A stretch of DNA of 64,000 bases. It comes from Escherichia coli. GTDB taxonomy: Bacteria; Pseudomonadota; Gammaproteobacteria; Enterobacterales; Enterobacteriaceae. A program made the position numbers. Location: NCBI RefSeq assembly GCF_044324785.1, contig NZ_CP172127.1. One strand, written 5' to 3'. This document shows, piece by piece, positions 26,401 to 32,400 of the stretch (positions are counted from its first letter, which is position 1; every line of letters starts with the position of its first letter).

Positions 26401-29400
26401 ACAAGACGGCGATTTTCGCTAAAAATGGCATTTAAATGTGATTAATGTCACATTTTTGTTTTGATGGTTTGTTGAGTCTTTGTGATCTGAATCACAAGAT
26501 ATTTTCTTACGGCGTTCACCTGATGTGATCTGCAGCATGTTATGTCTTCGTCATAAAATCGTTATGTAACTAAGCAACTCATCACCTCTAAAAATTATTC
26601 TTTGGTGTTATGGCAAGAATCGCGAACCCGGATTATTGTCAAAATATCAGCCTGACTCCCTTCTGGCTGCCAGCCAAAAAACAACACCGATAAACGTGAA
26701 TCCGAGGCAGATATGTTTCTAAACTATTTCGCGTTGGGAGTGCTGATCTTCGTCTTTCTGGTGATTTTTTATGGAATCATCGCGATACATGACATCCCTT
26801 ATCTGATTGCCAAAAAGCGCAACCATCCCCATGCCGACGCTATTCATACGGCGGGCTGGGTGAGCCTGTTTACTCTGCATGTTATCTGGCCGTTTCTGTG
26901 GATCTGGGCGACGCTCTATCAACCGGAGCGCGGCTGGGGCATGCAGTCACATGTTGCGTCGCAAGAGAAAGCGACTGACCCGGAAATCGCCGCACTTTCT
27001 GACCGAATTTCCCGGCTGGAGCATCAACTCGCCGCCGAGAAAAAGACTGACTATTCCACGTTCCCGGAGATCTAAATATGGATCTATTGATTGTTTTAAC
27101 TTACGTGGCGCTGGCGTGGGCGGTCTTTAAAATCTTCCGCATTCCGGTAAATCAGTGGACGCTGGCGACGGCGGCGCTGGGAGGCGTGTTTCTGGTGAGT
27201 GGTTTGATTTTGTTGATGAACTACAACCACCCTTACACTTTTACCGCGCAAAAGGCAGTGATAGCGATCCCCATCACGCCACAGGTGACGGGAATTGTTA
27301 CTGAAGTCACCGACAAAAATAATCAGCTTATTCAAAAGGGCGAGGTGCTTTTTAAGCTCGACCCGGTTCGTTACCAGGCGCGAGTTGACAGACTTCAGGC
27401 TGACCTGATGACGGCGATGCATAATATAAAGACGCTGCGCGCGCAGCTCACTGAAGCGCAGGCCAACACCACCCAGGTTTCAGCGGAGCGCGACCGTCTG
27501 TTTAAAAATTATCAACGTTATCTGAAAGGCAGCCAGGCGGCGGTGAATCCGTTCTCGGAACGTGACATCGACGATGCGCGGCAAAACTTCCTCGCGCAGG
27601 ACGCGCTGGTGAAAGGCTCGGTGGCGGAGCAGGCGCAGATCCAGAGCCAGCTCGACAGTATGGTTAACGGCGAGCAGTCGCAGATTGTGAGCTTAAGAGC
27701 GCAACTTACTGAAGCAAAATATAACCTTGAGCAGACTGTCATTCGCGCACCGAGCAATGGCTACGTCACTCAGGTACTGATCCGCCCAGGTACATACGCC
27801 GCTGCCTTGCCGCTGCGTCCGGTGATGGTCTTCATCCCCGAGCAAAAACGGCAAATTGTCGCCCAATTTCGGCAAAACTCGCTGTTACGTCTGAAACCCG
27901 GCGATGATGCGGAAGTGGTGTTTAACGCGCTACCTGGGCAGGTGTTCCACGGCAAACTGACCAGTATTTTACCTGTCGTACCAGGCGGTTCTTATCAGGC
28001 GCAGGGGGTATTGCAATCATTAACGGTTGTGCCCGGCACGGACGGTGTGCTGGGAACCATTGAACTGGACCCTAACGATGATATCGATGCCTTACCCGAC
28101 GGCATCTACGCCCAGGTGGCGGTTTACTCCGACCATTTCAGCCATGTTTCGGTGATGCGGAAAGTGCTGCTGAGAATGACCAGTTGGATGCATTATCTTT
28201 ATTTGGATCATTGAGGGGGGCGGGGGAGATTATGGAACTTTGCTCCCTGCAAGGACTAATTATTTTTGCATATTATTTCATCGGCTGTGATGATTTTTCG
28301 TTAATATCCATTATGTTAAGAAGTTCGGGATGAGTGTGAACTCATTGGATTTTTTATCCGTCTTGATCTGCCGAAGGATCAGACTATACATTGTCGAGAT
28401 CGCAATGATGATATGAGTTGTTCCTCTGCCACGGCTCTAATCAAAAAAGAGCAGGAGTGCTTTTCCATCTATTGCGATGATGGCTTTATTATCTGAAGGA
28501 TGACAGTCACATTTAAAAATATTTAATTTATAGATCACAATGTAGGTTCATGGAATATATGTATACAACTATTTTTCTCTTCACTTTTAATTATCGCATT
28601 CATTATAACACTAAGTTAAAAAAACTCCTGGAGAGTGAGTTATTAATATATTTTTAAATATAATTAAGTTATTATTCATCGATGCATTTTATAGAATCAT
28701 CAATGGCTACAATAGTACTATTAACTCTCCAATTTATATTTTTATTATCATTGCAAATATTAACTGAATCTATATCAATGATTTTTTTATTTTTATCTTT
28801 TATTTTATTTACAGTTTCAATGCAATCAGCGACAAGTTGGTGTGGATTTAGATTCTTCAGATATGGTCTTATGATCTTTCCCTTGCTTAATAAATAGCAT
28901 GTATAGGATTCGGAAAGTCCAGCATCTATTTTGTACATCATTATTCTAGATAAGGATGTGAGAAATGCCTTGTTATCATTAGCAGCCATATATGCCAGTC
29001 CGAGTTCAGCCTCTGCGGCTTTACATGAAAAATAGCTAAGTGAACACGCTTTTCGTCCCTCTTGGGTACTGGCTGATATTAGTGCCCATAATATTGCCTT
29101 GTCTGCCAAATCCAACTCTCTCTGAAATTGGTTTACAGTAACTGCATTCGCAGAAATAGAGAAGAAAAGCACAATTGTTAATAACCTTGTCATATTTCTA
29201 GTCCGTCACTGTTAATGTGCTATCTGGCTCTGAAAATATTAGCTCATTTAATTTTTGCATGTCATTAGATGAACCAGTTATACAACCCTCGGAACAGAAT
29301 CGAGGTCCTAAAGATGGACCAAAAGCGTTTAAACAACTATGTGTTAAAAATCCATCACGATTATACGTTTCTGTATTTGCTGACGGTACTAAACGTATAC

Positions 29401-32400
29401 CATTAGGTTTTCTATTAGTTGCTCCAGGACTGTTAAGCAAGCCTCGTCCGGTTTGCTTCATTGAGTTCTCCACTTTAGACTATTGGACTATCTTTCAACA
29501 TGGCATCGCCTTAGTATACCGCTGGTTTTCCGCTCATTGTTAATTTTCTCTTTCGTTCATTTCACTTAATTTTCAGTTTTTTTCCAAAAGTCAATATTCC
29601 CTTCTAATAAAATTTTTTCTATGGAATCTTCATTAATTTTATTATTAGAGCATATGACATTATCTTGAACGCCATATGACACCACCCCGTTTTTATCAAT
29701 ATAATATCTGTCTTTACCATCAACAATATAAATCCTAACATTTTTATCATCAAAATGGTAACACTCATTACTAGACCTGTTCAGTAACATTAATAACTTC
29801 TCACGATTTATCTGTAATAATTTTTGTGCACCATCTTTTATTGCAAAATTTTCAATTTTACTTTTAGTGACAGGGGAATATGTTTGGATGCGAAAAGGCA
29901 TCCTATAATGGAAAACATCAGCTATACAGCAAGATGAAAAAAATACGGAAATAAAATACAGACATACTTTCATACCATCTCCTAAACTGGTGATATATTA
30001 AAACATACCCAAAAGCAATATAAAAATGTTTAATATTTCATTCTTGCTGGCAAGCCCAACTCTTTACGAAATGGGTTTTCATATTTATCAACATTAGCCA
30101 TCGAGTCAGTTCCATCGTCTTTCATTCCCTTTGCATGCCCCATTTCATGCGCAAGAACCACACTCAACAGAGTGGGTTTCATGGCACATGCTTTGTTTTT
30201 TCCTTGATATACACATGAGCTATGGTCGTTATCAATATCAATGTAAAAACTATATTCAGTATCATCGTAGCATGTTTGGTTTATGCCTTTTCTTAATCCT
30301 CTAAATATATATTCATGCTCTGATGACTCTAATTCTTCTGTTATTTTATGTCCAAACTTTGTTTCTGCTACAGCTTTATATGCTTCTTTTAAAGTTTTTT
30401 GTGTACTTTCATCTCCCTGAAAAGACACTTTTAACCCTAATGGATCGAAACCAGATACCGGATTCAACGGATACTGATAAAAATTCCATCCCCCCTTAAG
30501 CCCAATCGGATCCTGAGTGATATACCGCCCCTGCAGCGGGTCATAATAGCGGTGGCGGTTGTAATACAGGCCGGACTCCTCATCATACTGCTGACCCGGC
30601 AGGCGGATGAGCTGCTGCAGCTGGTGCGGGTTCTCTTCATTCAGCAGGTTGCCCCATTCATCGTATTCTGCGCACCATTCTGTTGCCCCTTCCGTGCTGA
30701 CAAGCGCCAGCGGCAGGCCGCGATGGTCGCAGTGGTACAGGTGGATTTTTCGCGCCGGCGTGTACACCGGGTCCATCTGGTTTTGTATCTGCTCCACCGT
30801 CAGGCCGCACGATGCCAGCCAGCGGCGGCTTTCCTCACTCACCCGGTCAGTAAGGATTTCACTTTCCAGCCGGTCGAGCATCTGCACCAGCACCGGCGGG
30901 AACACCACACTGCCACCGTCTTCACCGCCGGACTGCTGAAGCGCATCCGCCAGGCTGCGGCGCTGCGTTTTCGCCAGCTCACCGGTGGCGGTTTCGACCC
31001 TGATGAGTGGCGTGAAGCTCCCCGGCTGATAAACCGTCTGGATGCGGGTTCTGTCGTTCTGTATCGTGGTCAGCCGGTCGCCGTCCCAGCCGTACCAGGT
31101 CACTTCCGGTTTCCGTGACAGCGACATCCAGCCCGTCAGGTCCCGTTCACGCCGCCACACCCGTTTTGCCACCCTGCGGCCCAGCGGGTCGTAAAGATAG
31201 CGACTTTCGACCAGCGGCTCTGCATATTGTGTCCGCGTGTAGTGCACCAGCCGGTGCCGGCTGTCGTAATGGTACTGGTGAGTCCGCTCATCATCCGTGC
31301 GGATAACCCCTTCCGGGATGAGGTCGGTTTTCTCTGTCAGCCTGCCGTGACGGTCATACCGGTAAAGATAGTGCGCGTCACGGGCGATACGGTTATCCGG
31401 CCACATGCTGAGGGTGCTGTCCGGGTGCAGCTCCGGGTCGGGCAGGCGGTTGCCTGCCGGGTCCGTGGCATACGGGATGCGGATATCAAGGTTCGCTGCC
31501 GTGGTGTGGACGCCGGTCAGCCTGCCGGTGTCGCTGTAGCTGTAACTCCGGGTCTGGCGCGGGCTGCTGATGCGGATGAGTTCGCCGTTGTCGTTCCAGG
31601 TGTAATCGCGGTCATACTGCAGGCTGTTCAGGTGCTGGCTCTGTAACTGCCCGGCAGGGGTGTAAGCGGTGGTGAGTTCATAACGGCCGAAGCTGCGCAG
31701 CGTTTCCCGGTGCAGGCGGTCGCGGGTGAAATCCACCAGCGGTGTGTCGCCGAGTTTCATGCCTGACAGCCAGCCGCTGCCGTAGGTCAGCCATTCCACG
31801 GCGGGCAGGCTGTCCGGTATACAGCGGTTCGCCAGTCCCTGCGCGTTGTAAGCGTGTCTGGTTTCATGCTGCCAGAGCAGTGCTTCCGTCTGCAGGTGAT
31901 GCACCGTCTGGCGCTCACCGGTCAGGCGGCCTTTCTCATCATACCCGTAATGCACCGTCACCCGGTGGCCTTCGCTGAGATGGCTGATGCCTGTCAGCCA
32001 GCCGCGTTCGTCATACTGCCACTGCTCTGCAGGTTCACCCTTCACGGTACGCTGCGTGATGCGGTCTGCTTCGTCATAGTGCCAGTGGGTGACCAGCCCC
32101 TCATCCTCGCTGCGGATAAGTTTGCCGGTCAGGTCGTGGTGATAACGCTGTGTGCGGCCGTCAAAGCCGGTTTCCTGTATCAGCCGGTCGAGTACATCGT
32201 AACGGAAGGTGGTGTGGCTGCCGTTTTCACTGGTCAGGCGGATGACCCGTCCGGCAGCATCGTATTCCATACTGCGCGTCAGACCGCCCTGCGTGGTACG
32301 GATGGCCTTTCCCCACGCATCGTACTGTGTCCCGTTTCTGCTGCCGTCCGGGGCAATGACGGCGGTCAGGTCACCGGCGGCGTTGTATTCATACCGCGTT

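Follow-up and report, generated by a model that had tools for sequence, protein, structure and literature searches.

With a probability of about 0.88, the distal end of the rhsA island in this Escherichia coli genome is the oldest part of the island and holds a degenerate orphan toxin–immunity module followed by insertion-sequence scrap. It lies in a 64,000-nucleotide stretch of contig NZ_CP172127.1 (the window). An initial annotation had read two ORFs here as orphan toxin and immunity remnants, and family and strain comparisons bear this out: the 173-aa product matches Imm57 (Pfam PF15596) at E 2e-44, and the toxin fragment is 99.5% identical to a Tlde1 orphan of strain 201609. The finding is of a known kind, ordinary at rhs loci and already annotated in RefSeq.

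In the window the rhsA locus of E. coli is reversed, with the gene order selA-yibF-rhs...yibH-yibI-mtlADR, and strain N3 matches it at 100%. A full-length rhs gene (30030..34172, minus strand; 1,380 aa, from the ORF list) occupies the rhsA position between yibF/selA and yibH, and is named 'RHS element core protein' in RefSeq (in the identical strain N3). The NCBIfam models RHS_core and Rhs_assc_core match its core end, and its C-terminal tip contains an HExxH motif (VLAHEMGH) and has a weak match to Peptidase_M91 (E 1.3e-3). Directly 3′ of this tip is a 135-aa ORF (29566..29973, minus strand), a RefSeq 'hypothetical protein' with a hydrophobic N-terminus (MKVCLYFISVFFSSCC..) for which an NCBIfam search found no family match; its arrangement behind the tip is the same wherever it is found, and it is presumed to be the immunity gene for the main tip. 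The toxin–immunity module (29473–28672) follows downstream on the same strand as the main rhs gene (34172–30030, minus strand), and the convergent HlyD-family gene yibH (27078..28214, plus strand) forms the fixed distal boundary of the island. None of yibA, yibJ and yibG is present at the window's locus, unlike the K-12 rhsA locus; yibG and yibA occur elsewhere in K-12.

The 91-aa GTG-start ORF (29198..29473, minus strand; from the ORF list) is present as first described and is a chimera. Codons 15/16–91 correspond to the final 76–77 codons of an Rhs toxin tip of the Tlde1/Tox-LD-peptidase type, and for these the earlier interpretation as a toxin remnant holds; it fails for codons 1–14, which derive from the decayed 5′ end of an rhs gene. 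The toxin fragment (29198..29430, minus strand; assigned by homology and Pfam Tlde1_dom) comprises 76–77 of the 145 toxin-domain codons, at the C-terminal end, plus the stop, and homology to strain 201609 (99.5% DNA identity) and to K-12 (about 93%) begins at 29430; the core fragment and the first 68–69 residues of the toxin domain are deleted. Pfam Tlde1_dom (PF10908) matches the window fragment marginally (E 1.3e-3, model positions 66–107 of 120) and its intact 201609 relative at E 5.3e-7; RefSeq names this relative, 99.5% identical in the shared part, a 'tlde1 domain-containing protein'. An NCBIfam search of the truncated ORF gave no match. Databases hold an 87-aa form starting at an ATG (29198–29461, with GGAG 6 nt upstream of the ATG), which is found on at least 1,000 contigs as 'type IV secretion protein Rhs'.

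The reality of the ORFs was gauged with 2,000 mononucleotide shuffles of positions 28215–29565. Open frames of at least 91 aa arise in 366 of these (18%), and the 91-aa ORF is therefore real only through homology; since a frame of at least 173 aa arises in just one, the 173-aa ORF exceeds chance on its own.

The invariant alignment columns in homologues of the Tlde1 tip are H, S-E-G-C and FGPS, and the window ORF keeps His45 and Ser61-Glu-Gly-Cys64 (91-aa ORF numbering), which are invariant in 9–11 homologues. Missing from it is the conserved N-terminal half, with its two Cys, GNNG, CKNN and RGPIPxGxW; four predicted strands fall within the 68–69 residues lost, and the catalytic domain is incomplete. 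An AF2 model of the intact 201609 tip is of moderate quality (pLDDT 63), and the top 50 PDB matches returned for it by Foldseek are all L,D-transpeptidases (best E 8.7e-4, TM 0.36–0.46), which lends moderate support to a predicted L,D-transpeptidase (YkuD-like) fold in this relative. Neither the toxin domain nor Imm57 has a sequence match among solved structures. With no Rhs shell or delivery part and 47% of its toxin domain missing, the 87/91-aa ORF is in all likelihood an inert pseudogene, and the toxin fragment dead.

The decayed rhs 5′ end (29431..29558, minus strand; identified by a shared 19-mer and blastn, with a 3′ limit uncertain by ~25 nt) consists of a leader, an ATG at 29537–29535 and the codons for MSGKPA, followed by in-frame stops, and the 91-aa ORF takes its GTG/ATG start from it. 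The 19-mer ATGAGCGGAAAACCAGCGG corresponds with one mismatch to the beginning of the main rhs gene (34154–34172), where 0.04 such matches are expected by chance. By blastn the remnant has 75% identity to the 5′ end of another rhs gene over query positions 9–91 (E 2e-4 against 28 Gb), and identity across 105 aligned nt is 66%, with 25 of the 36 mismatches being GC-to-AT. The K-12 rhsD locus has a similar rhs-head remnant at its distal end. An in-frame continuation of the 91-aa ORF upstream into an rhs core had been envisaged; instead, the GTG comes immediately after a TAA, and what lies upstream is this decayed rhs 5′ end.

The 173-aa ORF (28672..29193, minus strand), which likewise is where it was first placed, is an intact orphan immunity gene, imm57, separated by 4 bp (TAG-AAAT-ATG) from the stop of the 91-aa ORF. 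The PF15596 match spans model positions 2–100 of 100 (residues 30–127), and RefSeq names the product 'Imm57 family immunity protein'. The signal peptide with an AXA motif in the initial annotation is recovered as a predicted Sec signal peptide (residues 1–17) with a positive n-region and an 11-residue hydrophobic core; the N-terminus reads MTRLLTIVLFFSISANA/VT, the slash marking the likely cleavage site after A-N-A as read from the sequence. D31, S94-E95 and six Cys are invariant among Imm57 homologues from E. coli, Ralstonia and Acidobacteria. Divergence from the K-12 allele (dN/dS of 0.22 for the 3′ part of tlde1 and 0.33 for imm57) shows what reads as past purifying selection on both. The exact 173-aa sequence is intact on at least 1,000 contigs; the window and 201609 alleles differ by only three substitutions, too few to reveal ongoing constraint.

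The remainder of the interval up to yibH (28215–28671) is AT-rich (GC of 0.27–0.36, versus ~0.54 in adjoining yibH) and, as had been noted, no ORF in it reaches 60 aa, the longest being 49 aa (28184–28333, plus strand). It is not empty, however, as it includes a degraded internal fragment of an ISAs1-family (H-repeat) transposase (~28277..28508, minus strand; tblastn and reading). The fragment corresponds to about residues 96–175 of 378 and has an in-frame stop and a frameshift; the 201609 ISAs1 transposase matches the window by tblastn at 28314–28508 (58% identity over 65 aa, E 8e-23), and the extension to about 28277 was read by eye (NIMDINEK / KIITADE versus NMLDIKGKIITTDA). Of this transposase gene only the fragment remains here. 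The AT-rich spacer directly behind imm57 (28509..28671, minus strand) was inspected for promoter-like and hairpin sites. It contains a promoter-like TTAACT..GATAAT pair at 28619–28590, such sites being no commoner than in shuffles, and a weak hairpin with a T-run at about 28625–28645 that is not significant against chance (z-score 0.05); an Rfam search of the spacer gave no match. The same TTAACT/GATAAT hexamers have been given for the K-12 yibV-yibU spacer (PMC3946193).

The module is present in ~3,700 of 5,426 complete E. coli genomes, with the exact truncation of the window common to 180. In strain 201609 it is a classic orphan, in which an rhs-core end runs into a full Tlde1 domain in one continuous frame, followed by Imm57; the rhs-core start with its DPxGL boundary is found in the sister strains 201609, MLI114 and K-12. 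The K-12-type allele accounts for ~3,400 genomes and has a frameshifted imm57 in both of two examples inspected, and MLI114 has an intact tlde1 ORF beside a frameshifted imm57; on account of these frameshifts, selection for immunity looks weak within E. coli. In other Proteobacteria the Tlde1 tip closes full-length Rhs proteins of 1,500–1,800 codons. Among 15 loci of other species the tip ends a complete open frame (1,514–1,798 codons) in six, and an Imm57 gene is directly behind it in ten; the full-frame tips are 45–62% identical and come from Lysobacter, Stenotrophomonas, Pseudoxanthomonas and Luteimonas. A Tlde1 tip followed by Imm57 also occurs in Ralstonia and in one Acidobacteria genome. 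A search for a full-length E. coli Rhs with this tip, which could arm an attacker within the species, found none.

The closest known counterpart is the distal pseudogene block of the K-12 rhsA locus (yibG to yibH), which has the same position and orientation, abuts yibH and has ~93% DNA identity from the 3′ half of tlde1 through imm57 and the ISAs1 remnant. We take its pseudogenes to be yibS/yibW/yibV/yibU. In K-12 a core-3′ fragment and the entire tip survive, although frameshifts and a stop interrupt them, whereas the 5′ half of the tip is gone from the window; conversely, the K-12 imm57 has two 1-nt indels and that of the window is intact. A more general background is provided by the C-terminal displacement model for rhs loci. 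Orphan rhs-CT/rhsI modules were described by Poole et al. 2011 (PMC3150448), and the window resembles them in having a toxin-tip fragment and immunity gene downstream of a full-length rhs and a related tip fused to full-length Rhs in other bacteria. Such modules typically start with rhs core including DPxGL, but in the window the core part is deleted and an rhs 5′-end remnant stands in its place.

The pairing itself is that predicted by Zhang et al. 2012 (PMC3482391), who linked Tox-LD-peptidase to Imm57 and RHS. It is matched exactly in the toxin (H, S, C) and in Imm57 (D, SE, C), and likewise in the mostly alpha-helical immunity protein, the RHS repeats and the occurrence in beta-/gamma-proteobacteria; nothing essential differs, although the toxin copy in the window is a truncated remnant. 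Rhs-DUF2778 fusions exist, and the Tlde1 toxin acts in the periplasm (preprint 10.1101/2020.02.18.954545). The Salmonella SPI-6 T6SS Tlde1/Tldi1 system (10.1101/2020.02.18.954545; PMC9638812) shares PF10908 and the His and Cys, has reported Rhs-fused versions, and has a periplasmic target and signal-peptide immunity protein as predicted here. It differs in that Tlde1a is a stand-alone 173-aa effector with DUF2195 immunity, rather than an Rhs tip with Imm57, and its His-Cys spacing is shorter than the 18 residues seen here (canonical YkuD range); no direct sequence match to solved Tlde1 structures was found. Orphan immunity genes or arrays arising from effector displacement are described for V. 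cholerae (PMC5361080) and Serratia Rhs (PMC10539506), where an immunity gene is similarly kept without a functional cognate toxin and a guard against non-self effectors is proposed. Protection was demonstrated by experiment in those systems, whereas for imm57 of the window we infer it.

In the history that we propose, the original module would have joined an rhs-core end to a Tlde1-type (L,D-peptidase) tip, with the cognate periplasmic imm57 next and an ISAs1 (H-repeat) element formerly behind it. The event installing the main tip (HExxH, M91-like) and the 135-aa immunity gene would have removed the DNA up to mid-tlde1 and may have left the decayed rhs 5′-end remnant abutting tlde1 codon ~69; a search for the cassette's donor and for the precise junction identified neither. 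If expressed, Imm57 would leave the cytoplasm through Sec, with its signal peptide removed after ANA, and could then bind incoming Tlde1-type Rhs tips, neutralising those that competitors inject into the periplasm. Plausibly imm57 is still protective, with roughly even odds that it is both expressed and functional in this way. The opposing view, that the whole stretch is inert debris and imm57 unexpressed or useless too, intact only from too little time for decay, is a serious possibility, if short of an even chance. It is favoured by the frameshifts in the K-12-type copies examined and MLI114, the chance-level promoter signal, the few substitutions relative to the 201609 allele and the failure to find an E. 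coli attacker with a Tlde1 tip; set against it are the many contigs with the exact sequence intact, the improbability (1/2,000 shuffles) of a 173-codon frame at ~30% GC, and the dN/dS of 0.33 as a sign of past purifying selection.

That a second complete rhs with a Tlde1 tip collapsed by deletion from ~codon 40 to mid-tlde1, so that the rhs-head remnant was not imported, would account for an rhs 5′ remnant directly adjoining the 3′ half of tlde1 in the same orientation, and the remnant at K-12 rhsD offers a parallel. We consider it unlikely, as 201609 and MLI114, 99.5% identical in the shared part, have a short core-3′ fragment before tlde1 and no whole rhs. Moreover, the heavy decay of the remnant (66% identity, GC-to-AT bias, stops) contrasts with the almost unchanged part of tlde1 beside it, and the remnant was therefore already old when joined. 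It is very improbable that the 87/91-aa product and Imm57 form an active toxin–immunity or toxin–antitoxin-like pair within the cell: the catalytic His and S-x-G-C motif, the GGAG before the ATG at 29461 and a 4-bp gap suggestive of coupling speak for such a pair, and a Salmonella orphan Rhs module is reportedly toxin–antitoxin-like (PMC7043789), but 68–69 of the 145 toxin-domain residues are gone, and with them four predicted strands and every conserved N-terminal motif, the fragment has neither signal peptide nor Rhs carrier while its family acts in the periplasm, and frames this long are common in shuffles. The notion of unrelated housekeeping genes (yibG-like) merely lying beside rhs, raised as a counter-reading at the outset, found no support and can practically be discarded; the family matches are specific to Tlde1_dom and Imm57, the toxin–immunity pairing is conserved across phyla, and yibG and yibA are not at the locus.

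A tentative and rather doubtful reading is that the remnants in the window and at K-12 rhsD mark a recurrent route of rhs-locus remodelling, unlike simple C-terminal displacement. If so, either an imported cassette would carry the head of the following rhs and form an illegitimate right-hand junction, or tandem rhs genes would collapse; by either route, older orphans would be deleted rather than pushed downstream.

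The rhsA locus of the window is read in reverse orientation, and its gene order is the same in the RefSeq annotations of strains N3, K-12 and 201609. In the gene listing, selA and yibF (34.4–36.5 kb) are followed by a main rhs gene of 1,380 aa (34172–30030, minus strand), and the far side of the island is bounded by yibH (27078–28214, plus strand), then yibI and mtlADR. The region of the finding (28215–29473) is 100% identical to that of N3. GC content drops from ~0.62 in the rhs core to 0.27–0.39 over 28200–30500, as expected of rhs tips and the sequence beyond them. The initial annotation described here a 91-aa GTG-start ORF (29198–29473), a 4-bp gap, a 173-aa ORF with a signal peptide (28672–29193) and 457 bp of AT-rich sequence poor in ORFs, all of which are confirmed by ORF and GC checks; the signal peptide is MTRLLTIVLFFSISANA, ending before VT. 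Its reading of these as orphan toxin/immunity remnants is right in substance, as judged by family matches and comparison with 201609. A frame of at least 173 aa arose in one of 2,000 shuffles of 28215–29565, and frames of at least 91 aa in 18% of shuffles, so that the 91-aa ORF is credible only with homology. A 108-aa open frame (29217–29543, plus strand) also lies antisense to the truncated toxin ORF and an rhs-head remnant; length is its only support, and the shuffles often contain frames this long.

The 173-aa ORF encodes a full-length Imm57 protein (Pfam PF15596; E 2e-44, model positions 2–100 of 100) and is named as Imm57 family in RefSeq. Zhang et al. 2012 (PMC3482391) define Imm57 proteins as mostly alpha-helical immunity proteins that conserve D, SE and C residues and partner Tox-LD-peptidase toxins, RHS-repeat proteins among them. 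The protein is 25–29% identical to homologues from Ralstonia solanacearum and an Acidobacteriaceae genome, and all three have D31, S-E95 and six invariant cysteines in common. Both homologues likewise begin with a signal-like hydrophobic segment, and these shared features fit a predicted disulphide-bonded periplasmic protein. Single-sequence PDB searches returned no relative of Imm57 or of the toxin tip, and an NCBIfam search of the 173-aa, 91-aa and 135-aa ORFs gave no useful match. Promoter and terminator scans scored at chance level, and a hairpin following imm57 is not significant.

Homology of the 91-aa ORF to other E. coli begins sharply at 29430, from which point the DNA is 99.5% identical to 201609; identity to K-12, and to some 3,400 genomes besides, is ~93%. 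The counterpart in 201609 is a single continuous frame consisting of an rhs-core end and a 145-residue domain, with imm57 4 bp further on, which is a textbook orphan rhs-CT/rhsI module (PMC3150448). This domain matches Pfam Tlde1_dom with E 5.3e-7, and the window fragment alone does so with E 1.3e-3. The intact tip gave an AlphaFold model of moderate confidence (pLDDT 63), for which each of the top 50 matches in the PDB is an L,D-transpeptidase; a profile search of the PDB with the toxin tip matched the Rhs core-end motif only and left the toxin domain unmatched. Tlde1-type enzymes act on periplasmic peptidoglycan, and Rhs-fused forms are known (preprint 10.1101/2020.02.18.954545). The window ORF retains His45 and Ser61-Glu-Gly-Cys64, which are invariant among homologues, and lacks any Rhs core sequence as well as the first 68–69 residues of the toxin domain, including the invariant Cys, GNNG, CKNN and RGPIPxGxW motifs. 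Its first 14 codons are not toxin-derived, and the 87- or 91-aa product is most likely an inactive remnant. The 87-aa form (29198–29461, minus strand) is deposited on at least 1,000 contigs as 'type IV secretion protein Rhs' and is left unannotated in the current RefSeq annotation of N3; the public label is wrong, and the ORF should be treated as a pseudogene fragment.

An upstream continuation of the 91-aa ORF into an rhs-core remnant, which the initial annotation had raised, was not found; instead, an rhs head adjoins the middle of tlde1. This decayed copy of an rhs 5′ end (29431–29558, minus strand; MSGKPA followed by stops), which lies downstream of the current immunity gene, was recognized by blastn and by a 19-mer, ATGAGCGGAAAACCAGCGG, that equals the start of the main rhs gene bar one mismatch, with 0.04 matches expected by chance. 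The blastn alignment spans 83 nt (75% identity; E 2e-4 in a 28 Gb database) and pairs the remnant with the leader and initial codons of a different E. coli rhs gene. Relative to functional rhs heads the remnant is 66% identical over 105 nt, has in-frame stops, and shows GC-to-AT changes at 25 of the 36 mismatches. The K-12 rhsD locus carries a comparable remnant at its distal end (L005:7022–7117). A candidate microhomology at the junction (GTCCTGGAG or TTAA) was dropped, the rhs remnant being too decayed there to place the crossover, which is located no closer than about 29430–29455. An exact 30-mer of the remnant had no match among 100,044 species-representative genomes, and a blastn search for a cassette donor in E. 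coli returned only 180 identical loci and distant rhs 5′ ends. The rhs-head remnant is the sole unusual detail of the locus.

A scan of one genome per species, using a toxin-only alignment as query, found 17 loci with tips 45–62% identical to the E. coli orphan. The tip terminates a YD-rich open frame of 1,514–1,798 codons in six loci (in Lysobacter, Stenotrophomonas (two loci), Pseudoxanthomonas, Luteimonas and a Lysobacteraceae genome) and in one Proteobacteria genome. Fifteen loci were long enough for the downstream neighbour to be read, and in 10 of these an Imm57 homologue comes directly after the tip (hmmsearch E 1e-15 to 1e-57); the pair also occurs as short orphans in Ralstonia and an Acidobacteria genome. 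These results support cognate pairing and the interpretation of the E. coli copy as a relic of a toxin type once deployed. No full-length E. coli Rhs with a Tlde1 tip was found; the full-length examples outside E. coli came from the genome scan, and the hits of a word-indexed protein search were all short, 250 aa at most, which probably reflects 90% clustering dominated by the Rhs core. The full-length Tlde1-tipped proteins of Xanthomonadales and a Proteobacteria genome (L019, L021–L025 and L031) have apparent Sec-like hydrophobic leaders, unlike the E. coli Rhs head; judged by the first 60 residues of the frames, these hint that the tip is exported there by another route.

Among 5,426 complete E. 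coli genomes, 3,726 carry the module, which is on the chromosome in every case and essentially single-copy. The K-12-type allele is found in about 3,490; the tip of K-12 itself carries frameshifts and a stop, and imm57 is frameshifted in both examples inspected (K-12, through two 1-nt indels, and strain 20.1). The 201609-type allele, whose tlde1 frame is open, is found in about 170. One of these, MLI114 (L006:9047–9975), has an open 135-aa tlde1 ORF beside a frameshifted imm57, which suggests that even without immunity the orphan toxin frame does no harm, presumably being unexpressed or unexported. Between the window and K-12 alleles, dN/dS is 0.22 for the 3′ part of tlde1 and 0.33 for imm57 (dS 0.16–0.27), indicating that most of the divergence built up while both genes were under purifying selection. 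The relic exists in three states within the species: intact ORFs, K-12-type decay, and 5′ truncation with the immunity gene kept. Two Amycolatopsis orientalis contigs (L028 and L029; 330 and 258 bp) are 99% identical to the K-12 tlde1/imm57 junction and, on this identity, are almost certainly E. coli K-12 DNA contaminating actinomycete assemblies.

The exact window junction occurs in 180 of the 5,426 genomes, accompanied by the M91-like main tip with its 135-aa immunity gene, and the cassette is always in this context; all contigs that encode the 135-aa protein, or a variant 97% identical to it, are arranged alike. The main tip (30030–30500, minus strand) contains an HExxH motif and has a weak match to Peptidase_M91 (E 1.3e-3). 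The 135-aa neighbour (29566–29973, minus strand) has no family match and a hydrophobic, possibly lipoprotein-like N-terminus (..FFSSCC..). Taken with the current tip, this N-terminus makes the current and relic modules both look periplasm-aimed.

The AT-rich tail contains an ISAs1 transposase remnant (residues 96–160; 28314–28508), identified by tblastn with the 201609 ISAs1 transposase (58% identity, E 8e-23). It has an in-frame stop and, judged by eye, extends past a frameshift to about 28277; this H-repeat scrap also terminates the K-12 rhsA locus. In 201609 an intact ISAs1 transposase gene (L002:6544–7680) stops 10 bp short of the tlde1 orphan's core fragment. The intact 201609 copy and the old remnant on the yibH side indicate that H-repeats entered the island at least twice. 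The 163 bp from imm57 to the ISAs1 remnant have no significant structure, and an Rfam search of 28100–30100 was empty. A TTAACT..GATAAT pair lies in this interval (28619–28590); a genomic SELEX study gives identical hexamers for the K-12 yibV–yibU spacer (PMC3946193), and from the hexamers these are probably the same sites, with a spacing of 18 rather than the 15 quoted there.

These comparisons establish what each piece is, where the break falls (about 29430) and that 180 genomes have the junction in common. We propose that a single event exchanged the earlier content of the island for the present tip with its immunity cassette, crossing over on the left within the conserved core and ending on the right inside tlde1. 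The rhs-head remnant may have arrived with the cassette, or may be left from a collapsed tandem rhs gene. The elements of the locus belong to known kinds that RefSeq already names and the literature had anticipated, and the importance of the finding is modest. The distal end of the rhsA island preserves, as the initial annotation had suggested, a record of an earlier toxin type. This was a peptidoglycan L,D-peptidase tip formerly present in most E. coli. Imm57, if transcribed, would be exported and could then protect against incoming Tlde1-type Rhs tips; weak retention of imm57 across the species holds our estimate for this function today at about even odds. Contact-dependent competition could be swayed by an intact orphan Imm57 against Tlde1-armed neighbours.
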